Assembly (NCBI GenBank): GCA_951406725.2
Contig: OX597831.1
Location: 2,046,001 to 2,110,000 of the forward strand
DNA length: 64,000 bases
Source of the DNA: Octopus vulgaris
Lineage: Eukaryota
Reading direction: 5' to 3'
The notes beneath the pieces are model-generated. The model was not told the DNA's origin and made no database searches. It was given only the letters and a program-made list of their open reading frames with translations. The translations under genes were made by a program, and so were the position numbers. Below, piece after piece: positions 5,462 through 50,001 of this stretch; the stretch's first letter is position 1, and the number at the start of each line of letters is the position of its first letter.

Positions 5462-6488
5462 CATATATTGTCAGACAAGAAAGGTTAGAGAATAGATGTT
5501 TTGTATATATGTATATGTGCAAATATCTGTATATTGATGTCTCCTTGTTTTGACATTGTATACTAATTATAAACAAGCATCACTGTCATACAAGCAGTGT
5601 CATTCATTTCCAATAATCTGCAAAAACATGTCTGGCCACTAGGTAGAAAATCTGCTTCAATAAACTCTGTCTGACCCATACAAATATGGAATGTAGTTAT
5701 TAAAATAATAATGATGACAGCAAAAACGATAATGGTGTAGGTAGGGCTTAGAAAAGAAGGGATATTGCATAATGTGGCAAAACATAAGTGTAAATAGACG
5801 AGATGGTTATAGATCTGCTTTATCAGAACTGACCTAGGTTTAAACAATAAGAAACTATTTGCTGAATTCAACAAAAAAGAAAACCTTCATTTATCAACTA
5901 AAGCAGTTCCACCACTAACCACCCCAAAAAGCTCCAATTCTGTCACACGATGGCTTCAAGCTGGGAATTTTACATACACATGTGAAACTATTCTAATCCT
6001 AAAAATGAAGAGAAAACAAGAAAACTTGTTCACTATGTCAATCAGACCGACTTTTACACCATGCTAGAGCAGGTGTGGGAAGAAGTGAAAACGAAAAAAT
6101 CAAAAAATTAATAAATAAACTGTTGTAGGTGGAAGGAAAAATGCAGTTTCTGAATTACATGATTACTTCAAGGGTAAAGCTTTACTTTCCATATATTTTA
6201 TCTATGTTCTTTCATTTTAGAATTTGTCTTTGTAAAAATTTTGATCTGAACCAGTGTGCTTAATGAAACCAACATTGTTATATTTTGGAAGTGTTATGCT
6301 AAAGCCTATAAACACAGGTTGTTATTTGTCTATATTCTTTCTGTATTCCATCAGTATTTCTCAACCAATTTTTACTTATTGGACCCCTTTGATTCCTATT
6401 TTACTCTGATTAACCCTTTACTTTGATATCACGGGATAATTATGAATGAGTGTCCCTATCATAATAAGCAGTGTCTCATGTTATCAAT

Positions 6489-6594
6489 GTACTAGCTACG
6501 GCGGTACATATTCTAAAATTGGAATGATACAGAGAAGATTAGCATGGCCCCTGCGTAAGGACGACACGCACATTCATGAAGCATTCCATATTTT
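6489..6594 (+). pseudogene. U6: Full-length U6 snRNA copy (retroposed, decayed)
   Basis: GTACTAGCTACGGCGGTACATATTCTAAAATTGGAATGATACAGAGAAGATTAGCATGGCCCCTGCGTAAGGACGACACGCACATTCATGAAGCATTCCATATTTT. ACAGAGA box and AGC triad present; several CpG-decay changes; upstream sequence is a repeat, not an obvious PSE/TATA promoter. Confidence 0.92.
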
Positions 6595-7032
6595 CTAGGT
6601 AGTGGGTAGCAATTTTCTTCACTACTTCATGGAGTGTCGACCCTACCTGACACGAGTCCCGGGCTCAGCTGGCTCTGGCTGACAGTACCTAGTATGGGCC
6701 CCTATCCAGGGTTACGGAAAGGAGACAACCTTCAAAAAAATCCGGAGTGGAGCCCCGTAGGCGGTTTAGTGTTCGACTCGACACTTTTCCGGCAGCTCCT
6801 GCAACCAAGCTGGTGCCAAACGTAATGCTCTGCACTCCTTTGGATTACGTCAGCAAGGTCGAGAGAGGAATCCTGACGATTGGGCTACCCAGGATTTTCT
6901 TACATCTGGCCGAGGCCCGCGCAAAACTGGGGAGGGAAATGGAGAGGACATGAAGTGTAAAAACTAGACTGGATTAGTTTATGCGCAACTCCATTGTCTT
7001 CCGAGACAAAAGGATGCCAACAACAACAACAA
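6489..7032 (+). mobile_element. U6-headed composite retroposon: U6 + GC-rich body + (CAA)n tail
   Basis: Flanked by catgttatcaat (6477-6488) and catgtttccaat (7033-7044), 10/12 identical; interrupts an older repeat. Confidence 0.75.
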
Positions 7033-7525
7033 CATGTTTCCAATCTTCTATGGAAACATATCTGACAATGAGTAAATATTTCTTTGCTTTGGAAGCAGGT
7101 GAAGATTGTTAACAGGAAGGACATCTAACCATACAAAATCTGATTTTAATGAATTCCATCTGACCCATGCAGGCATGGAAAGTGGATGTTAAAATGATGA
7201 AAATGATAACAAATACATTGAGGAACATGCAATACCCTATATATACTGATGAGTTGAGTCTAACCTATATATAGCTTGGAAGCTCCTCGTTAAAATATTA
7301 CACTAGAAGCTCTCACAAAAATTATATAACATATACACCATTTAATTATTATAAGGCCCCTGTGGATTATGAAGCACTAAGCTATATTTAGCTTGTTTAG
7401 CTTATGTTTAAATCTGGCACTGTGAGCATGTTGAGCAGTTCTTTTTGGTTTGGAGCAATTAAATTCTTCAACCAAAGTTTCTTTCTATGTTATTTTGAGA
7501 TTGGAAAGAATGTGTGTGTGTGTGT

Positions 7526-15290: not shown

Positions 15291-15397
15291 ATGTCTATGT
15301 TAGCAAATGGTGTATGTGCAAGATGTGGAGAAGGATTCCAGTTAAAAGACCAGATTGTCAACTCAAATGATCAATCTTGGCATCCAGAATGCTTTGT
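15291..15397 (+). CDS. LIMS1: PINCH coding exon 1 ([12 protein letters not shown]...WHPECFV)
   Basis: Polypyrimidine tract and AG at 15282-15283, GCCATG start context, donor gtatgt at 15398. Confidence 0.93.
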
Positions 15398-16495
15398 GTA
15401 TGTATTGACTTTATTATTTCTACTTTTCTTTCTTTATTTTTGTCTTCTTTTCCATTATTTCTTTATCATCTTTTTGTCGTTTTTTTTTTGTCTACTTCCT
15501 ATATCTTTTGTTCTCTTTCATATATTTCTATGCCTTCTTCCTTTTGTTTTCTCCTGTCTTATTGCTTCTTTGTCTTCTACTTGTCTTGTTTTCATTATTT
15601 TCTATTCCTCTGTTTTATTTTAATTTTTTTTTTTTTGGTTTCCTATCTCGTCTCAATCCTAACCATACTTTAGAAATAAAATGGCTGAGTGAATAAGATA
15701 ATGAGTTATTGACTCAACACCAGCACCACATCTACCACAGGTACTGTTAATGGAGTCTACTCTGTTGCAAGCATACAAGGTGATGCTGAAAAGTGCCTGG
15801 TTTTGGGTAAAAAAAAAATACCTGAGGATCAGTTAGTTATGATTTTATTGACCATGGCGGTGCCCCAGCATGGCCACAGCTCATGAACTGAAACTAGATG
15901 AAATAAAATAAATATTCCCCTCTCAGATTCACACAGTCGTTCAGTTTTTCTAAGCCCTGTAAAAGGACTTCAAAAGTTGACCCTCCAACCAGGCCTTTCA
16001 CAATACCCTAAAACCAGTAAAATTTTCAGTACCCCTTGAACAGACCAGGCCTCTGGTCTGAAAATCAAATTCATAACTTGAGTCAGGGAGCAACACAAAA
16101 GTCATGTTTTATGCTTTTGTCTCCCATCAGACTTTGAGATTCCACAAAAGGGTCATTAGTCTTATTCAAGGGTCTTATTCAACTGACTAAGCCACCTACT
16201 ACAGATGTTCCCTTACAGTCTTGAGTAGGACAAACTTAACAACTTTCATTATTTGTGACCTTAATAGATAGAATATATATATATTTGCAAATAGGTGTGA
16301 GAGTTTGTGTGCATGCACACAAAAACATAATCATCCTCTCTTTTGATGGGATTCTGAGAGACTATTTTATGACCTGATGACCTTCATGATGGTAACTACT
16401 TTAGTCTCTACTTACAATATACAGGTCTGTGTGTGTTTGTGTATATATGTGCAGATGTATGCATATCTAGTTGTCTGTATGTGTGTGTATGTGCA

Positions 16496-19700: not shown

Positions 19701-22700
19701 ACCATAGCAATTGATGAAGAGGAAAGGGTGACTCATCTTACATTCTCCATATTGATGACATAATCCACCAACTCTGAGTATCACACCACATCCTTTACGG
19801 AGGCTGTTTGTGGTGACCAACCTGCTAAAATAGCAGCTAAATGTTCCTCAAATCATATCCAACCAACTTAAAAAGAAAAAAAGATGCTCTGCATAATGTG
19901 GGTCCTGAATGGATGTGCATCATCATCATGGTCCTTTTCCTGTTCGCAAGGACCTGTCAGAATTTGTTGAAGCAGATTTTTTATGGCTGGATGCCCTTCC
20001 TGTTGCCAATCCTCACCTGTGTCTCCAAGCAAGATAATATTTCCCCTTTGGCTGGATGCGTTTTCACAGAAGACTAAAAACAAATGAGACCACTTGGATA
20101 ATGATCACACTCACTCCATCGTGTAATGTTGAGACAAGGACATACACACACACTCATACATATATACACATACACACATATGCAAGCGCACGTGTGTGTG
20201 TGTGTATGTACACTTGGCTTTTTTTAGTTTAATTCTACCAAATCGTCTCAGAAGGCTTTTGTTAGCCTGGTGCTATAGCAGAAGACACTTACCCTAGGTG
20301 GGTGCTACATCTGAAAACTGAGTCAAGTTGGTCATGGTTGGATTAGCTTTGATCATAATGCTGATTAATCAGGGCTGACCTGGTTTCAAACAGCAACAAC
20401 TGACTACTATGTAAACACACACATATACATACACTGACACACATCAATATACATTGTTTGTGGTTGTGATGGAAATGAGTCGAAAAATTCTGGTTTTTAA
20501 TCCAGGATGGCCTAAGGTTGAGGACTTCATGGTGATTGAAGAATTTGGTGGTGGTGTTGCCACTTAATCATTAAATAATTATATTTTAATCCTCAGAGCT
20601 GTCAATCTTACTTGCTCTGGTTAATTCTTTGAGAGCGAACAGCAACCTGTCGTCAGAGGTCTCACAGGGTGTCTTTCCATCATCATCATCATCATCGTTT
20701 AACGTCCGTTCTTCATGCTAGCATGGGTTGGACGGTTCGACCGGGGATCTGGGAAGCCAGAAGGCTGCACCAGGCTCCGGTCTTATCTGGCAATGTTTCT
20801 ACAGCTTGATGCCTTTCCTAACGCCAACCACTCCGTGAGTGTAGTGGGTGCTTTTTACGTGCCACCTGCACTGGTGCCAGGCGAGGCTGGCATCGGCCAC
20901 GGTCGGATTGGTGCTTTTTACGTGCCACCGACACGGAAGCCAGTCGAGGTGGCGCTGGCAACGGCCACGATTCGGATAGTGCTTTTACGTATCTCCAGTC
21001 CAGGGGTCCTGGCATCTGCCGGGTGCCAGTCATAGGATTGGTTCAATTTCGATTCCGATTTCGATTTCGATTTCACTTGCCCCAACAGGTCTTCGCAAGC
21101 ATAGGTGCCTGTCGTCGGATGAGGTTCGATATCGACTTCGCTTGCCTCAACAGGTCTTTGTGTGTCCAAGGGAGGAAAGGCATGCATAAGTGGGCTGGAC
21201 TCACTTGTCCTGCCTGGTCTTTTCACGCACAGCATATTTGCAAAGGTCTCGGTCGCTGGTCATTTCCTCAGTGAGACCTAAAGTTCGAAGGTCGTGCTTC
21301 ACCACTTCGTCCCAAGTTTTCCTGGGTCTACCTCTTCCACGGGATCCCTCCACTGCTAGGGATTGGCACTTTTTCACACAACTATCTTCATCCATTCTCG
21401 CCACATGACCATACCAGCGCAATCGTCTCTCTTGCACACCACAACTGATGCTCCTTAGGTGCAACATTTCTCTCAGGGTACTAACGCTCTGTCGAGCATG
21501 CACACTGACATTACACAACCATCGGAGCATACTGGCTTCATTTCTCGCGAGCTTACACATGTCCTCAGCAGTCACAGCCCATGTTTCGCTGCCATGTAGC
21601 ATGGCTGTTCGTACACATGCATCATACAGTCTGCCTTTTACTCTGAGCGAGAGGCCTTTAGTTACCAGCAGAGGTAAGAGCTCCCTAAACTTTACCCAGG
21701 CTATTCTTACTCTAGCCGTTACACTTTCAGCACACCCACCCCCACTACTGACTTGGTCACCAAGATAACGGAAGCTATCAACTACTTCTAGTTTTTCCCC
21801 CTGGAAAGTGACGGAAGTTGTTTTCTGCAGATTTTCAGAGGTTAATGCTCCCGAGCATCTGCCACATACAAAAACCATCTTCCTAGTTAGCCTTCCTTTG
21901 ACATTGCTGCACCTCTTATGTGTCCATAGCTTACACTTGGTGCATCTTATAGAGTTTCTACCTACACCTTTTCTACAGATCGAGCAGGGCCATCTACCTG
22001 AAGGCGTTTGTGATTTGTCTACCTTCCTACTTATTACGACTTTGGTTTTAGCTAGATTGACTCTAAGGCCCTTCGATTCTAAACCTTGCTTCCACACCTG
22101 AAACTTCTCCTCCAGTTCTGATAGTGACTCAGCAATTAGAGCAAGGTCATCAGCATAGAGGAGCTCCCAGGGGCATCCTGTCTTGAATTCCTCCGTTATT
22201 GCCTGGAGGACTATGATAAATAGGAGGGGGCTGAGGACTGAGCCTTGGTGGACCCCTACCTCTACCCGGAATTCTTCACTGTACTCGTTGCCATAAATAT
22301 TAAAACTTGGTACCAAGATGTTAAGTATCGTGGAAGGCGCCTAACACCCAAGTACCAATCTCGAAATCCTTGCTGTCCCCAATAAAGCAGTTTTTTGAGT
22401 ATGCTCTAGGGTCTACTCTTATATCAGTTCCGAAATGTAGGATAAGTCTATCTAATAACCCTAGTATTTGTCAACACAATCAGTACTATAATAATGAAAC
22501 ACACACACACATGTATACATACAAGTACATACATTCATACATATACATAGTCACATCTTATATGCATACATACAAACTTCCACATTCTCATTCACACATA
22601 TGTATGTGTGTATATATATGTATATATATCAATAATCGAGGGTAAAATTAATTAGTTATGAATCAATTTCACCAAGTAGTGTTCAGTATGTAAAAGGACC

Positions 22701-28700: not shown

Positions 28701-31700
28701 CGTCAGCAGGCAGACCTCACTACTAAAGAAGATTCAAAGTAACTTTTCATTAGGCACGTCATACAGAAGTCATGCAGGTTGCAGTTTGCCCACGACTGTT
28801 CTAGAGTTTAAATCAACATGTAGAGAAATATGTTTGGAAGTCTGGGCCTTGAGTGAGTTTTAAAGTTTGAACAGGAGCAGAAAATTCAAAATTAAATCAA
28901 TTTTGTTCGTATGTAAACTCTACTGGGGTATTTTAGGTATGTCCCTTTATATCCTACATTCATATTCCATTGAGGCTGACTTTCGTCTCTCAGCTTTCTG
29001 CGTTTGGTGAATCATGTACCAGTAATGGAGTGTGATCATTTCAGTTGCTTATTCTTCTCCCACTAACAATTTGTGCTTGTGCTCCTCCATACGGAGTACA
29101 AGACAATTTGCACCTGACTCTACATTAATTGATAATGTCTTGGAATGTAAGGGGACGTAACTCAATTCTGCTATTTTATTTTTCACATAAAAATAAGACA
29201 ACTTGCACCTGACTCTATCTTACTTTCAGTCAAAGGTTTTTTTTTTTTGCTTTGTCTTGCAAGTTGCTTGACAACCCCACCAGTGCAAGTGCCAAATGGG
29301 AAAGCATCCAGTACACGTTGTGAAGTGCTTGGCATAAAGGAGGACATTCCAGCCATAGAAATCATGCCAAAGCAGACATTAGAGCACAATGCAGTCCTTG
29401 GGCCCATTGGAGCCTGTTAAACCATCCAATCCATGCCATGGAAGATGGGCGTTAAATGATGATGATATAATGATGGGATTTTTTCAGTTTCCAGTTACCT
29501 AACACACACACAAAGCTTTGATCAGCCCAAGGCTATAATAGAAGACACTTTCTCCTTGTGCCATAGAGTGAGAATACACCTGAAACTATATGGTTGAGAA
29601 GCGAACTTCTTAACACCAGAGCCATGCTCACACTGGGAACTGAAATTTGTATGTTGGGCTAAAAAGAAGAGTATATTGTGAATTTAAATCAACTAATTAA
29701 TTACTTATTGTCAAACCAACAAGGAAGCGTCTAAATGTTACATCTCATGTTCCACGAATTGATAACGAATCGGAATGTAAGGGGACGTAACTCTATTCTG
29801 TTATTCTATCTATATATATAAAACTGTAGTTGTGTGAGTGTCTGTCCCCTTCGATTTAGATTCCTAACTACTCCCACATTTTGCGGTGCAGTTTAACCAA
29901 ATTCGGGTATCTTATAGTCGTGATTCATATCGAGCCCGTCTGAGTATTAGCATGAGTCTACGATTTTAAAAATAATTTAACATAATTTTTTATTCCATTT
30001 TAATGCATAATTTTTCGTGTGTCGATGGCGGCGGAGTTGGCGTCCATGGTCACACCTGCACCTGTTTGCTTCTCCCCCTTCTTCCCTCCCTCGTGAAGGT
30101 GTAGGGAAGGGAGTGTAAGGAAATCAACGTCGTAAAGCGTTGTCAAAGAGTCCAGCGTTCTTTTAGAACAACAACTTCATGGCTTGAAGACACCAAAACA
30201 GAAATGGCTAAGAAAGCCCGAATTGGCATCTATAAGGGAAGTAACTCTCTAAAAATGCTTATATAGTTATTTCCCTTACAAACCCGAGCAACGCCGGGCG
30301 AATTCTGTTATTCTATTTCTCATAAAAATTTATTTAATCGACAAAACCTGACATTGAACCAGAGGCCTTTTAGATTAGGATCTTTGTTATAATTAATTTA
30401 TGTTTGCTATTTTTCAGTGTTGAACTAACTGCTGATGCACGAGAGAAGAATGGTGAGCTCTACTGTCTGCGGTGTTATGACAAGATGGGAATACCAATCT
30501 GTGGAGCCTGCAGGTAGATCATTTCAACAGCATCATTATCTTCATCACAATTTCATTCATGACCATTAAATATCATTGTAACCTTCATATTTATCATCAT
30601 CATAATATTCATTATCATTGCCTTCACCATCATAATTATCTATGTAACATCATTATCATCGCTTAAACAAAATCACTATTGTCACAGACATAACATTGTT
30701 TTCATCAACATCGTTTTCATTGGTGTCATTGTAAGTATGGTCATTGTCATCAGTATTGTTGTCATTGTAATTGCTATCATTGTCATAATCATCGTAATCA
30801 TCGTCATCATCATCATAATCATCATTGTAATCATCATCATTGTCATCACCATCATCATCGTAATTATCATTGTCATTATAATCATCATTGTCATCATCAC
30901 CATAATCATCATTGTCGTCATCATCCTCATTATAAACCTTTTTCTCTTTATTTCAGACGACCAATAGAAGAGAGAGTTATAAATGCTTTAGGTAAATACT
31001 GGCATGTTGAGGTTAGTAGAATTGGTTTTTGGTTTTATTTTGTTCTTTGTTAGAGTCACTTCACCCCTACTGTTGCAACACGCCTGCCATCATTCCACAT
31101 CACCCTCTCCAGCTCACACCCTCATCCAACCTACCATCTCCTCTAAGCTACCAGTTCATCCATCATACTGCAGTAATAATATTAATGATACTCTAAAGGC
31201 AGTGAACTGGCAGAATCGTTAGCACACTGGGCAAAATGCTTAGTGGTATTTTGTCTGTCTTTATGTTCTGAGTTCAAATTCTGCTGTGGTCGACTTTGCC
31301 TTTCATCCTTTCAGGGTCGATAAAATAAGTATCAATTGAACACTGGAGTCAATGAAATTTACTTATCCCCTCCCCACCAAAAATTGCTAGCCTTGTGCCG
31401 AAATTTTAAACCAATATTCTATAATACTTATCGTGTGTGTGTGTGTGTGTGTCTTTCGGCAACAGTTGTAAATGAGTGTCACCATTAAACATGCTGTGCC
31501 ATTTGTTTCCAATATTACATGAAAACATGTCTGGCCGTGAAGGAAATATGGCTGCAGAAAATCTTCAACAAATTCCATCTGACCCATGCAACCATGCAAA
31601 CATCATGAAAAAGTGGACATTAAAAAAGTGGGGTGGGGGTTGATGATTGATGGTGACTGATGATGATTGATGATGACTGATGGTGACTAAAACTGTAGTA

Positions 31701-31993
31701 ATGTACTGTATTGAAACCATAGTTCTGCATTACAGTAATGTACTGTGGTAATAATACTGGACTTAGCCTACTACTACTACTACTGCTATTACAATTACTG
31801 ACTTAATTCCTTTTCTGTTTTACTTTACAGCACTTTGTCTGTGCGAAGTGTGAGAAACCATTTTTGGGCACCAGATATTATGAGAAGAAGAATATGGCTT
31901 ACTGTGAAATACATTATCATCAGGTAGGTGTACTTGTTGTTGTTTAGTCCCAGGTTAGCCCTCATCCAACAAACCTATGCTCAAATAATTAGA

Positions 31994-37494: not shown

Positions 37495-40400
37495 CCTGGT
37501 CACCATAGGAACTAATAGTCTTGCTTCAGTGCCTCTTTCTCTTTCTCTCTTTCCAATCTATTCTCTAGAACAGTCTGGAAGCAATCTGTAGCCTTATTCT
37601 CCATTTGTTGTAAGAATTTCATTAACTCACCTGTCACCAAGGAGGGGAAAAAAAACAAAAACTGAACAGTGCCCCAATATGGTTATAACCTCTGGTTGAA
37701 ACTGTTTATAGAATGATAGAATATAAGTTAATGAGCATGTGTCTATTGCTCTTTACTATTGTGACAGTTTATTTTCTTTGTTGTTTACTGAGTGAAGCAT
37801 TTGTGTATACAGAGAGGTCAGTATCATCCAGTGGATGGTTAAAGAACTGAACTACTTACTGACTTAAAGGTGATGAGTTCAAACCATGACTGGGATATAT
37901 GAGTGTTGTATTCTGGAGCTCATATCTCCCAGATTTTATAGCATTTGGCCTGTATGGAAAATCACTTTCCCTGACCTAACCAGCTCTTATTTCCCTGGAT
38001 AGAATAAGGTCAATAGTCCATCACAGATTTTAATGTATTTATCCACTGGAATGTGAGCGGAAAAGATTTGGTAGTGATTAGGTTGGGCTAATGTTATAAG
38101 CCTGGCAGCAGTGCACTTGATGTGAATGTCTCAATTTGCTGATTTTCAGGCCAGTGCAACCCACAAAAGAAATAATTTGGTCAACAAGAAAAAAATAGTT
38201 TATAATTCCAGCTGACCAACTGGCAAAGTCATTAGAACATAAGACAAAAAGTCTTGTGGTACTTATTCCAGTTCTCTGCATTCTGAGTTCAAATGCTGTT
38301 GAGGTCAACTTCACATTTCCTCCTTTAAGGATCAACAAAATAAAAAAAAAACACTTGAGGGCTGTAGATTAGTGGAATCTACAGAGCATCAGACAAAATT
38401 TTTTGTGGTGTCTTTTCCAGTTCTTTGCATTCTGAGTTTTTCAGAGGTTGACTTAATCTGCTGCCTGGTTTAACACCACCACCTCGTCCTTGGGTACCTT
38501 TAGCAGAGTTCTCCTCTTTTGCAAGCACATGTCAGGTCACTGGTTTGAGGATACATACCATCCTTCCTCCTACCAGTCTCAGAGGCCCTGATAAATAAAT
38601 GGGTGATGGATATTGCCTTTTTTTCCTCCACTTCACTAAGCCTTAAAAATAAACCCCTACCTAAATGCAACAATGGAGAGTAGAAAAGAAAAACAAAGCA
38701 CAAAAAAAACAGGTTTTCAGAGACTGTTTCTAGTAAATATCTAAGACAGAGATAAGGGTTTCAATATTCAAATTCTTTTTCCTATAGACTTTTTAGTTTG
38801 ACGTTATAAATTCATAAAACTGAAATATTTTCATAAATTAACCCTTTTGATACCAACCCATCTGAGGCCATCCTGGGTCCTATGATACAAACTTCCTGTT
38901 AATTTATGTTCCAAGCACCCTTGATGCTGACAAAATCATTTTATTAAAATTTTCATTATTTTCAAAACTGGAACAAAGGCAGTGCATTTCAATTAGTGAC
39001 AAAAGGGTTAAAATTGCAATGGATTAAATCCTTTTTCTTTTTTCTGAAATAGAAATATACTGGAAAAAGAAACTGCCCCCAAAAAAGAAAACTGGAATTT
39101 TGAAAATAACAAAAATTTTCAGTTTGAATTTCAATTAAAAATTGGAATTTTCTTTGGTTTTAAAAAATGACATTTCAGTTTTACCAATTTTGAATTTCAA
39201 ATTGAAATATTATAAGAAAAAAATTTGAAATTCTTATCTCTGATCTCAACTTATCCTGCTTCACTTTATTTATAAACGTTTATTTTTTTTTTAATTAGAC
39301 ATCTAGAGTTAGTCTAAATGCCTTAAATATATCTATTTTCTATACAAATCTATATTTTATTCTTGCAAATGGTTTATTTTTTAATAAGTCTTTGTCATTC
39401 AGACCCTTCACTTTCTCTATATTTCTCACACAAAAATATTGCATGTTTTTGCTATTATCTTCTTTCCAATATTATCTGCCTACACACTTCAGAATAGATT
39501 TTTAAAGAAATTATCTTTTTGCTCCAGATTTTTATTTTTTATTTATAATTTTTTTTAATTAAATATATTTTAACCCTCTTTGATACCAGAAAGTGCTTCA
39601 GAGGAGTGAAGATGACATCACTTTCAATGGCATTGAGTAAATTTGAAGGGCACCTCTCCTTTGGATACGACACTATCAGATATTGTGGACACACAGTCCT
39701 TTTCTTGTGACTAAACAATACATTAAAAACAAAAATGAGAAATTATACAGTGATCCTACTGCTTACAGTGTACCTCCTCATGATACCAATTTACTGTTAG
39801 GTGGACTGAGCTGTTGAGTAGTGAGTGTCTTACTTGCTGAACAAATGGTGGGACATGAATTGGCAATCTTTTGGTTAGTGGAGGCAGTATCTCTGCTGAT
39901 GTTGCTTCAGAAATACAAGTCCCCTTATTTATAATGTCCATATAATAGCTTTACAGTTTAGGGCTTTCTCAAGAAGAAATCCTGTGATGGTAGCATGCTT
40001 CGACCTGAGATTGTGTATTGAAACTGAAACAGTAACATTGTAGAAGAGTCATGTTAGCCATTTAAGAACACACATGCTTTTTACATTCACCTTTGATTTA
40101 TCTTATGTTGCTGGTGCAGTACTTAGGCCTTTGGTAATAGTTTACTTTATAAACACTGTCTTCTTGCACAGTTAAAGAAGCTTCACCCAATCAGTTGATT
40201 AAATCACATCATCATCATTTTAACAATCACTTTTCCATGCTTGCATGGGTCAGATGGAATTCAGTAAAGGCAGGTTTTCTATGGCTTGGTGCCCCGCCTG
40301 TTACCATAAATATATTCTGTATAAAAACAAGGTATTAATATTTATTACATATAGCATTGGCTAAAATGCATATGTTCTGAAATACTTAATTGCTTTGAAG

Positions 40401-40637
40401 CAAAATGTTGTAATTGCACACCAATAACTTATTAATTAAACTAGCTGCCAAATGCATAATAATATGCAAATCAGTGTATATGATTTACTTAAGCATGTCT
40501 TTGAAGATAATTATAGAGGATATTCAGTTGCTGAGGAAATATCAACACTTGACTGAAACTGGTCTAGTTTATCTCTTTTTCTTTCTGTTTCTGAAGATAT
40601 ATAAAGATCAGGTGTTTACATCTGCCTGTCACATATA

Positions 40638-43925: not shown

Positions 43926-45159
43926 TATGTAAAAGATATACTAATGGGTAAAGGAATATATGAGAGGTACATTGAGAGAATACTATAAGTATATAGACAT
44001 AAGGGTGTGAGAAATATACTGAGACAAATATTACACTGACAGAGATACTGATGGTTATAGGGGTATGTGAAAGACATACTGATGGGTATAAGGGTATGTA
44101 AGAAAGATATATTGAGTATCTGAGCAATATACCAAAGGGTATAAAAATGTATGTACTTATTTATAAGATATGAGGGTCTTCAGATCTTTTTTTTATTTTT
44201 AAATATTTTTCTTTGTTCTCTTCACATTTAATTTTCTTTTTATCTACAGAATTTCTTCTTCCTTTGACTTCTTTTTTTCTTCTTCTTCTTCTTGTTTCTG
44301 TTGTCTTCCCATAACTAACTTTGCTTTTGTAAATCAATGACATGGAGAGAACCATGTAAAAAGCACCCACTACACTCTGTAAAGTGGTTGGTGTTCAGAA
44401 GGGCAACGAGCCATAGAAACCATGCCAAAGCAGACAGTTGGAGCCTGGTGCAACTCTCCTGCTTGCCAGCTCCTGTTAAACCATCCAAACCATGCCAGCA
44501 TGGACTTTGAATGATGATTATACATATCGTGTGTGTGTGCATATGCATATGTGTGTCTATGTGAATGCTTATATCCTGATTCACAAACAGGAACATTTGT
44601 TGATAGTGTTTCCCAACAAACCATCTGCTAATTCTGTACTTTTGAAGATGAGTGGGGAATAAAAAAAAAACAGGTTCGTGTTAGTGACAGTAAGGGCATG
44701 CAGCTGTAAAAGAATGTTTCAATATGTAATCATCTAACCCATGCTAGCATGGAAAAACGGATGTAAAGTGAATAAACAAATATACAGAAAAAAGAGTGTG
44801 AAGGATCTTATCAAATATTGAGTTACACAAGGATTCATACAAATTAGATTTTGATACTCAGAGCAAGAGGTGGTCTTACAAGAAATTTCTGATCTGATAG
44901 ATAAGTGACATCATCATCATCATCAATTTCATGTCCACTTTTTTATGCTTGCATGAGTCAGAGTTTATTGAGACAGAATTTCTACAGTTGGATGCCCTCC
45001 TTGTCACCAACTATCACCTGTTTTCAGGCAAGGTAATATTTCCCCATGGCCAGTCATGCTTTTGCAGACTATCATAAATGAATGATGGTTTGTTTGATAG
45101 GGACAATCATTTACAACTATCATGCAATGTCAAGATAAGGGGGACACACGGACACACAT

Positions 45160-48454: not shown

Positions 48455-49873
48455 TCATGGTTCACCTTCAAAAGATTTCCCCCCCATGTGAGTTCGTTCA
48501 TGTTTCTTCAAATCACAGTTATTGATAAAAGACCTGCCGCACATTTCACATCGATATGGTCTTTCCCCCGTGTGTCTACGTGTGTGATCTACAAGACGAG
48601 AATTAACAGAAAATGATTTTCCACAAATTCCACATTGATAGGGTTTCTCTCCAGTATGGATTCGTTTGTGGAGTAGAAGATTAAAATTCCGAATGAAGAA
48701 TTTTCCACATATCTCACAGTGGTAGGGTCTCTCCCCGGTATGTCCTCGATTGTGGATAATAAGATTCGAATTAAGGGTGAAAGATTTTCCACAAATTTCA
48801 CAGTGAAACAATTTTTCCCCAGTATGTGTCCGTTTGTGCCTCAATAAATTACTGTTGACCACAAATGACTTTCCACAGGTTTCACAGTAATAAGGTTTCT
48901 CTCCCGTGTGCGACCGTTTGTGGATTGTAAGGTTAGAATTCTCCCTGAAAGATTTACCGCAGATGCCACAGTGGAACGGTTTTTCTCCCGTGTGAATCCT
49001 GCTGTGTACTTTTAGGTGTCCATTCGAAACAAAATACTTTCCACACACATCGCAGCAATAGGGTTTCTCGCCTGTGTGGTTACGTCTGTGGCTCGTAAGA
49101 TGAGAATTCTGAATAAAAGACTTTCCGCATATCTCGCAATGATAAAGGTTTTCCCCCGTGTGGATTTTCTTGTGTGTTGCTAAATTGCTACTATCAGCAA
49201 AAGATTTTCCACAGATTTCGCAATGGTACGGTTTCTCCCCACTGTGCCGTCTTCTGTGCGATTTTAAATAATCGTTCGACACAAAAGATTTTCCACATAC
49301 CTCACAGTGATAGGGCTTCTCCCCAGTATGACATCTTTTGTGCGTCTTCAAATGATCGTTAGATACAAAATTTTTTCCACACACTTCGCAGTGAAAGGGT
49401 TTCTCTCCCGTGTGACTACGTATATGCAGTGTAAGCTTAGACCTTTCTATGAAAGATTTCCCGCATATTTCACAGTGGAAAAGTTTCTCCCCGGTATGTA
49501 TCCCGGTGTGCCTTCTTAAATTACTGTTGGAAACAAAACATTTCCCGCATATTTCACAATGAAAGGGTTTCTCGGCGTTGTGTACTTTTTTGTGCCTTGT
49601 TAAATTTCTGCGAGAGACAAAAGATTTATCACATATTTCACAGTGGTAAGGTTTTCCTCTATTGTGTAATTTTTCTTGGTGCGCGAAGAGTTCATATTCC
49701 GAAGAGAACGTTTTCTTGCAAATCTCACAGCTATATTCTGAAGTCTTTTTTCCCTCCACCGAACTTTGGTTCGTAACTTTCTCTCGACTGTATGTCCGTT
49801 TAACTGAATCTACATCTACATTGTTATAAACGACTGTGTTGTTACAGAACTCCAAGTGACTTATATCCTCCAT
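48455..49873 (-). CDS. Tandem C2H2 zinc-finger protein, 15 fingers, 472 aa, single coding exon
   Basis: Intact ORF with 15 CxxC-x12-Hxxx(x)H fingers and TGEKPY/F linkers; short N-terminus with no recognisable effector domain. Confidence 0.95.
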   Translation of the reverse strand: MEDISHLEFCNNTVVYNNVDVDSVKRTYSREKVTNQSSVEGKKTSEYSCEICKKTFSSEYELFAHQEKLHNRGKPYHCEICDKSFVSRRNLTRHKKVHNAEKPFHCEICGKCFVSNSNLRRHTGIHTGEKLFHCEICGKSFIERSKLTLHIRSHTGEKPFHCEVCGKNFVSNDHLKTHKRCHTGEKPYHCEVCGKSFVSNDYLKSHRRRHSGEKPYHCEICGKSFADSSNLATHKKIHTGENLYHCEICGKSFIQNSHLTSHRRNHTGEKPYCCDVCGKYFVSNGHLKVHSRIHTGEKPFHCGICGKSFRENSNLTIHKRSHTGEKPYYCETCGKSFVVNSNLLRHKRTHTGEKLFHCEICGKSFTLNSNLIIHNRGHTGERPYHCEICGKFFIRNFNLLLHKRIHTGEKPYQCGICGKSFSVNSRLVDHTRRHTGERPYRCEMCGRSFINNCDLKKHERTHMGGKSFEGEP

Positions 49874-49909
49874 AATTAGACCCGACGAATGTTGAAAGCC
49901 GAGAAATGT

Positions 49910-50001
49910 CTGTAAATATATTATGGTTCAGTTTCCCGTCTTTGTTACCACGGAATTCCATTTACAAATGCAGAATATATATATTTATTTTTTCTACTCA
50001 C
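49910..50001 (-). other. Probable 92-nt intron upstream of the ZNF start codon
   Basis: Minus-strand donor GTG|GTGAGT at 50001 and acceptor TTTACAG at 49910, 36 nt upstream of the ATG. Confidence 0.6.

Follow-up and report, generated by a model that had tools for sequence, protein, structure and literature searches.

Retrocopies in which the U6 snRNA is joined to a retroposon have been described with several partners. Doucet et al. 2015 (PMC4476161) report chimeras with L2 and Mon-1 in platypus, where they make up 40 of 47 U6 copies, together with Anolis chimeras that involve L1, L2, RTEX and a SINE (AnolisSINE2) and, with doubt, two opossum cases involving RTE, and call U6/Alu rare; a fungal case also exists (PMC2104539). 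How U6 chimeras form is disputed between a template switch and ligation by RtcB, both of which are restated as mechanisms in PMC11838501, and the evidence is nearly all from mammalian L1. Kojima 2015 (PMC4494074) distinguishes the SINEU elements from chimeras on two grounds, that SINEU partners do not occur without a head and that the elements have a common structure. Bipartite non-autonomous RTE elements are known in the form of Bov-A, RTESINE1/2, MAR4_MD and RTE-N (Kojima 2018, PMC5786205), and Kojima 2020 (PMC7245038) describes small-RNA heads on bipartite RTEs, naming none from U6 in its account of these heads. Our literature search covered few subscription papers and is a weak negative, but it returned no report of U6 chimeras from cephalopods or other molluscs, and such chimeras go unmentioned in the available text of PMC4758252 and PMC9115989. 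Here, we describe a U6-headed insertion in a 64,000-nucleotide stretch of the Octopus vulgaris genome (the window), which belongs to the known class of U6/retroposon chimeras and not to a new SINE class.

Results

The U6 copy is the single Rfam family detected in the window, with a match to RF00026 at 6489-6595 that covers model positions 1-105 and scores 103.5 bits (gathering score 44), in agreement with the full-length U6 at 6489-6594 proposed in the initial annotation. Comparison with the gene-like paralogs assigns this retrocopy (6489-6594, + strand) to paralog 'a', from which it differs by six substitutions. It ends in CATATTTT at 6594 with four T and is followed by a single extra C at 6595 (+ strand), recognized as extra since free copies of the adjoining element, referred to as the body, begin with TAGG; they terminate with GGATGC(CAA)n. 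The two parts thus adjoin after the T-run, as first noted, but they are not directly joined. The C is likely a non-templated base, although it may instead be a later T>C change. The body spans 6596-7017 (422 bp) and runs into a (CAA)5 tail at 7018-7032 (+ strand), which is the (CAA)n end described before and is seen in the alignments to be common to the body and its parent LINE. No octamer was found by scanning the 300 nt upstream of the U6 copy.

The unit is bracketed by two 12-mers that match at 10 of 12 positions, as previously reported, the left copy being CATGTTATCAAT at 6477-6488 and the right copy CATGTTTCCAAT at 7033-7044 (both + strand), with the first CA of the latter extending the tail. 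Flank alignments place the insertion within an older host repeat (6440-7200, + strand), which is about 30% diverged. When the insert is removed in silico, the flanks align over the join to further copies of this repeat at 31465-31625, 44913-45142 (minus strand), and ~19970-20116 (minus strand). Taken by itself, the left flank outscored all 200 shuffles against the copies at 31465 and 44913, and 193 of 200 against the copy at ~19970, while a fourth copy (40180-40450) matches the right flank only, with 169 of 200 shuffles scoring as well. The copy at 31465 has TGTTTCCAAT at the insertion site, which resembles the right duplicate. As the host repeat rejoins across the unit and one duplication surrounds it, U6, body, and tail entered as one piece, confirming the suggested single insertion into a repeat that is intact at about 31465.

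Other features of the window include exons of a LIM-domain gene (Pfam LIM; 15294-15401 and 31831-31923, + strand) downstream of the insertion, which we take to be PINCH-like. A 490-aa ORF with a C2H2 zinc-finger array is located at 48455-49927 (minus strand), and a 379-aa ORF at 21201-22340 (minus strand) encodes the RT C-terminus of a further RTE-like LINE, the RT region of which holds a cysteine-rich insert.

Copies of the body are abundant in the genome. Searching with the body as query yielded 1150 first-look candidates, and the best 39 non-self copies match almost the entire body at 91-94% identity. Target-site duplications were found in 24 of 29 body copies, of which 7 are flagged as low-complexity and several are weak. 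An exact 23-mer of the body 3' end has 202 genome matches (0 in the control), and the 5'-end 16-mer, which both U6 chimeras described below carry, has 319 (5 in the control). Among the first 30 matches to the 3' end by position, 17 extend to the first five bases of the body and none is U6-headed; two others (L192 and L210) are LINE remnants in which only the last ~85 nt are common to the body. Following L210 to longer copies in a second query led to the 5' end of this LINE, and both parts of the body align to its ends. The 5' module (body 2-340, window 6596-6944, + strand) corresponds to the extreme 5' end; LINE copies L288-L298 match it at 89-92% identity along 339 nt. Body 340-431 aligns to the 3' end of this LINE with 83-89% identity. 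The 3' module (window 6945-7017, + strand) comprises the last ORF codons with the stop and the 3'UTR, and is 83-91% identical to LINE 3' ends. The modules meet at AGGACA, a motif found at both LINE break sites. A 6-bp hairpin is predicted near the 3' end of the 3' module (MFE fold; whole-fold z -1.33, not significant).

Where LINE copies retain both ends, their length is 2.3-3.9 kb, with 3.82-3.86 kb in the longest. They contain one ORF, which begins ~580 nt downstream of the 5' end and encodes an AP endonuclease (PF03372) and an RT (PF00078) in a single frame; there is no ORF1, and every copy examined is interrupted. These alignments identify the body as bipartite and non-autonomous, an RTE-like element made of the first ~340 and last ~85 nt of a ~3.8-kb LINE at 87-92% identity, which upholds the earlier idea of a module combining an RTE 5'UTR and 3' end. 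With its single ORF, (CAA)n tail, and 11-12-bp duplications, the predicted LINE fits the RTE clade, for which 3' microsatellite tails and duplications of 7-15 bp are characteristic (PMC6007223). Its Atlas neighbours are endonuclease-RT clusters, which we treat as a lead only. The element was also compared with RTE-2_OV, and this identity was rejected as none of the five published primers (PMC9115989) matches within three mismatches.

Several RTE copies show structural peculiarities. Six of them (L288-L296) have a common AT-rich extension in front of the LINE 5' end, varying from ~70 to >150 nt, as if derived from a master whose transcription began at an upstream promoter. At G000:C25 20.80 Mb (L009/L010), a full copy is preceded by four to five tandem repeats of the initial ~165 nt of the body. 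In addition, an amplified composite (L214-L257) has the same flanks at many loci and consists of a SINE-A-like stretch in which an RTE copy, broken off within its endonuclease domain, is nested.

The U6 copies of the genome were surveyed with an exact 14-mer of the U6 3' end, which has 496 matches (9 in the control). Our sample of 95 of these, comprising the complete set of 91 from C1 and C2 together with the first 4 from C3, covers 94 loci and contains 6 chance matches and 88 true U6 loci. In 75 of the 88, the U6 3' end is joined to a same-strand retroposon. Nine are gene-like, seven of them forming a cluster alongside a single gene and a U6-U6 tandem, and the remaining four comprise a tRNA-U6-U6 array, inverted fragments, and two unassigned loci. 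Scaling 75 of 95 to 496 gives an estimated ~390 fusions genome-wide, counting exact-motif copies only.

Two gene-like U6 paralogs can be told apart by positions 6, 10, 15, and 24. Paralog 'a' is the type found in a gene-like cluster in which at least seven ~1.1-kb units lie in tandem (G000:C1 139.42-139.43 Mb, L115-L121), and the other is a single gene of canonical type (L161). The U6 copies of the cluster and L161 have an octamer at -76 to -78 and a TATA at -30. In the U6-U6 tandem (L150:1415-1626), two copies are arranged head to tail with no spacer and an octamer is present at -75 of the first. The tRNA-containing locus (L129:1356-1560) is a tripartite chimera of a tRNA-Lys(CTT), a 5'-truncated U6, and the start of a second U6. 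Finally, one U6+tail chimera occurs six times at ~20-kb spacing within a tandem duplication (L109-L114, G000:C1 132.42-132.53 Mb).

Because 6 of the 75 fusions are tandem duplicates of one event, 70 are counted as independent. The partner is joined at its intact 5' end in 39 of these, namely at the 5' end of SINE-A (30), SINE-B (7), another SINE (1), or the RTE body (1). A further 25 are located at the first bases of ~55-nt LINE/SINE tails that begin near GGCGG, five lie at internal positions, and one is ambiguous. SINE-A and SINE-B are labels of the present analysis, and the term SINE rests on their anatomy, since ARAGORN detected no tRNA head in 7 of 8 loci. Both retain in the chimeras the first conserved bases of their free copies. 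The linkers between U6 and partner are highly diverse, with 27 distinct ones in 30 U6+SINE-A, 7 in 7 U6+SINE-B, and 22 in 25 U6+tail fusions, and a run of 4-6 T is present at 43 of the 70 junctions.

Paralog a was assigned to 29 and paralog b to 20 of the 70 chimeras, leaving 21 unassignable. The upstream octamer is present in all nine gene-like U6 copies (at -75 to -78) and in none of the 70 chimeras. In a test for a hidden master, only 17 of 2415 pairs have at least two common non-CpG U6 substitutions, 10 of them through 16A. This variant is carried by 14 chimeras and spans several partner families, which hints that a third source variant of U6 exists. Near-full-length U6 is present in 39 of the 70 fusions, and the U6 start bases are bimodal, with 49 at 1-18, none at 19-52, and 21 at 53-84. 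Fifteen of the truncations fall on bases 62-69, presumably close to the internal stem-loop of U6 and to its modified bases, and this cluster suggests that the RT stops on native U6.

For one of the ~55-nt tails, copies were counted genome-wide, giving 2120 matches of which 14 (~0.6%) are U6-headed. These 14 have 13 distinct linkers, and 8 derive from paralog a, 5 from paralog b, and 1 is unassigned. A minimal U6-SINE consisting of U6 and this tail was therefore rejected for the one tail tested. The tail forms the 3' end of a LINE that we assume to be CR1-like from a motif in its C-terminus, for which there was no Pfam match. In 30 tail copies taken in order, 22 run on into the LINE, 4 break off at the tail boundary, and another 4 are fused there to other sequence. 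Sequences joined at this boundary include a full 5S rRNA copy and SINE fragments. The 5S rRNA case (L310:1368-1545, G000:C1 13.32 Mb) consists of a full-length 5S rRNA (Rfam 102 bits), a short linker, and the ~55-nt CR1-like tail, a SINE3-like structure. At 10 of the 14 U6+CR1-like-tail junctions, there are bases absent from both parents.

Discussion

The initial annotation had left two options, a U6-headed SINE family or a one-off U6/RTE chimera. Scoring 40 of 705 candidates from a junction query revealed one other full match, and the exact junction pattern likewise has two genome-wide matches, the window and G000:C1:179.099 Mb (0 in the control). A looser pattern gave 31 matches against 46 in the control, of which only the two known chimeras carry the U6 end. 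The U6-headed share of exact body/LINE 5' ends is thus 2 of 319, or ~0.6%. The second chimera, whose duplication lies in low-complexity sequence, has the linker CTT in place of C, and each copy has six U6 substitutions relative to its source paralog with none in common. When 31 bodies were placed in a tree, the one from the window grouped (support 0.88) with a headless copy and not with the second chimera. This tree is star-like and weakly supported, so that the conclusion that the two are not sisters leans mainly on the U6 substitutions and linkers. From these sequence comparisons, the two copies are judged to have arisen independently. The existence of a second copy and the architecture of a SINE at birth, a small-RNA head on a bipartite RTE (PMC5786205; PMC7245038), would be compatible with a SINEU-like family in which U6 and body amplify as a unit, and exact patterns overlook decayed copies, with 95 of 496 U6 motif matches inspected. 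Yet the scarcity of U6 heads, the unlike linkers, and the lack of a common U6 substitution all speak against it, as does the large majority of headless partners, which is the reverse of the SINEU test as given in PMC4494074. The other partners show the same pattern, with 27 linkers in 30 U6+SINE-A and 13 in 14 U6+tail fusions and both paralogs with each, and we give a family next to no credence. With hundreds of headless bodies and two U6-headed ones, the genome comes close to the case that the initial annotation itself named as refuting its proposal, a body that occurs genome-wide but never with U6 at this junction. The chimera option holds, but it is no one-off, as most U6 copies in the sample are fused to a retroposon. 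A juxtaposition of U6 and body by two separate insertions or by recombination at the DNA level could account for the imperfect duplication (10/12), but is very improbable, given that the single duplication brackets both parts with none at the internal junction, that the host repeat rejoins, and that the same-strand head-to-5'-end geometry recurs across dozens of loci.

The locus is probably an independent chimera made when the RTE RT jumped from the 5' end of the element onto the 3' end of U6, a reading that draws on the arrangement of its parts. As the sequence comparisons show, an internal deletion of the ~3.8-kb RTE-like LINE first produced the ~430-nt 5'+3' element, which multiplied into hundreds of headless copies. 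The LINE protein would bind the 3' end of the element RNA and prime at the nicked site through the CA overlap between tail and target. The RT would then copy the RNA to its 5' end, add one untemplated base, jump onto the UUUU-3' of U6, and copy to U6 base 1, and one duplication would come to enclose both parts, as it does in the window. U6 sits one base from the exact 5' end of the element. The product would be dead on arrival because the upstream U6 promoter is absent and the U6 T-run is retained. Such chimeras recur at about 0.6% of insertions, in the RTE family and at the CR1-like LINE tail alike.

The main competitor of this jump is a ligation of U6, with its 2',3'-cyclic phosphate, by RtcB to element RNA with a 5'-OH, followed by retrotransposition of the fused RNA. 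RtcB ligation has been shown for human U6/L1, with T-runs of 4-6 among the ligation products, as at 43 of the 70 junctions here (PMC6789731), and the 25 of 70 junctions that recur at the tail boundary may mark cleavage sites. These 25 fusions fit endonucleolytic cleavage and ligation equally well, and ligation would yield the same structure in the window if the RTE element RNA had a 5'-OH. However, the 39 fusions at intact 5' ends, in which the first bases of the partner are retained, favour jumping, since ligation needs a 5'-OH, the partners are mostly SINE-like, and such RNAs are expected to have triphosphate 5' ends. In vitro, RtcB failed to join U6 to 5'-triphosphate RNA (PMC6789731). A self-cleaving ribozyme in the body had no Rfam match at E<=10, and an HDV-like descriptor, used without a positive control, found none in 12 sequences; the upstream extensions common to some LINE copies also argue against obligatory 5' self-cleavage. 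Jumping is further favoured by the 10 of 14 tail junctions that hold bases from neither parent, as untemplated addition is required for jumping by the R2 RT (PMC8857657), and untemplated junction bases, common in the present chimeras, are atypical in the ligation study as it presents its products (PMC6789731). In contrast, untemplated R2 bases pair with the acceptor and would not appear as extra bases (PMC8857657), and linker bases in ~5% diverged copies may partly be later substitutions, both of which count against the jump. The joining of several unrelated RNAs (5S rRNA and SINE fragments) at the same tail boundary again favours jumping, and on balance we regard ligation as unlikely, though a serious contender.

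The locus itself is a dead retrocopy, and its value is that of a pointer to a large natural data set. The several hundred junctions with other LINE clades lie at defined ends, where the models of jumping and ligation predict different things with respect to 5' chemistry, untemplated bases, and non-genomic fusion RNAs. With its small-RNA head on a bipartite RTE, the locus follows the architecture that has been proposed for SINEs at birth, and this architecture forms repeatedly without giving rise to a family, as would be expected if U6 supplies no internal promoter. On a broader reading, which we consider evenly poised between right and wrong, the genome is a "SINE nursery", in which the RTs of two LINE clades routinely jump onto U6. 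In this reading, the ~85% of U6 copies that are fusions (~390) would have formed at the intact 5' ends of their partners and at one sharp boundary upstream of a LINE tail, where 5S rRNA and SINE heads also swap in. If true, this would provide an RtcB-independent path to U6 chimeras and a direct record of head-tail joining in new SINEs.

The jump-derived chimera proposed here can be placed among several described systems. With the U1/U2-headed SINEU of crocodilians (PMC4494074) and with snoRTE and SINE1-1_EBu (PMC7245038), it has in common a small-RNA head on a retroposon body, but these amplify as units of uniform structure, whereas U6+body does not (PMC4494074; PMC7245038). Like the bipartite RTEs of Kojima 2018 (PMC5786205), the body in the window combines RTE-like 5' and 3' ends with a microsatellite tail. 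The human U6/L1 chimeras of Moldovan et al. 2019 (PMC6789731) are similar in having full-length U6, a short T-run, and a joined retroelement. However, their L1 is described as variably 5'-truncated with no preferred site and as RtcB-joined (PMC6789731), whereas 64 of the 70 present fusions are found at a partner 5' end or at one tail boundary. SINEs are the main U6 partners in our sample, while U6/Alu is called rare in human (PMC4476161). The closest resemblance is to the platypus and Anolis chimeras (PMC4476161), in which the U6 3' end is likewise joined to a non-L1 LINE or SINE within one duplication. The predominance of chimeric U6 copies is also similar (40 of 47 in platypus, PMC4476161, vs. 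75 of 88 in our sample), although the platypus U6 sequences are reported as almost all 5'-truncated (PMC4476161) and those in the present fusions are near full length in 39 of 70. Compared to the platypus and Anolis cases (PMC4476161), the chimera in the window stands out by its partner, a headless bipartite RTE complete to the first base, and by its invertebrate host.
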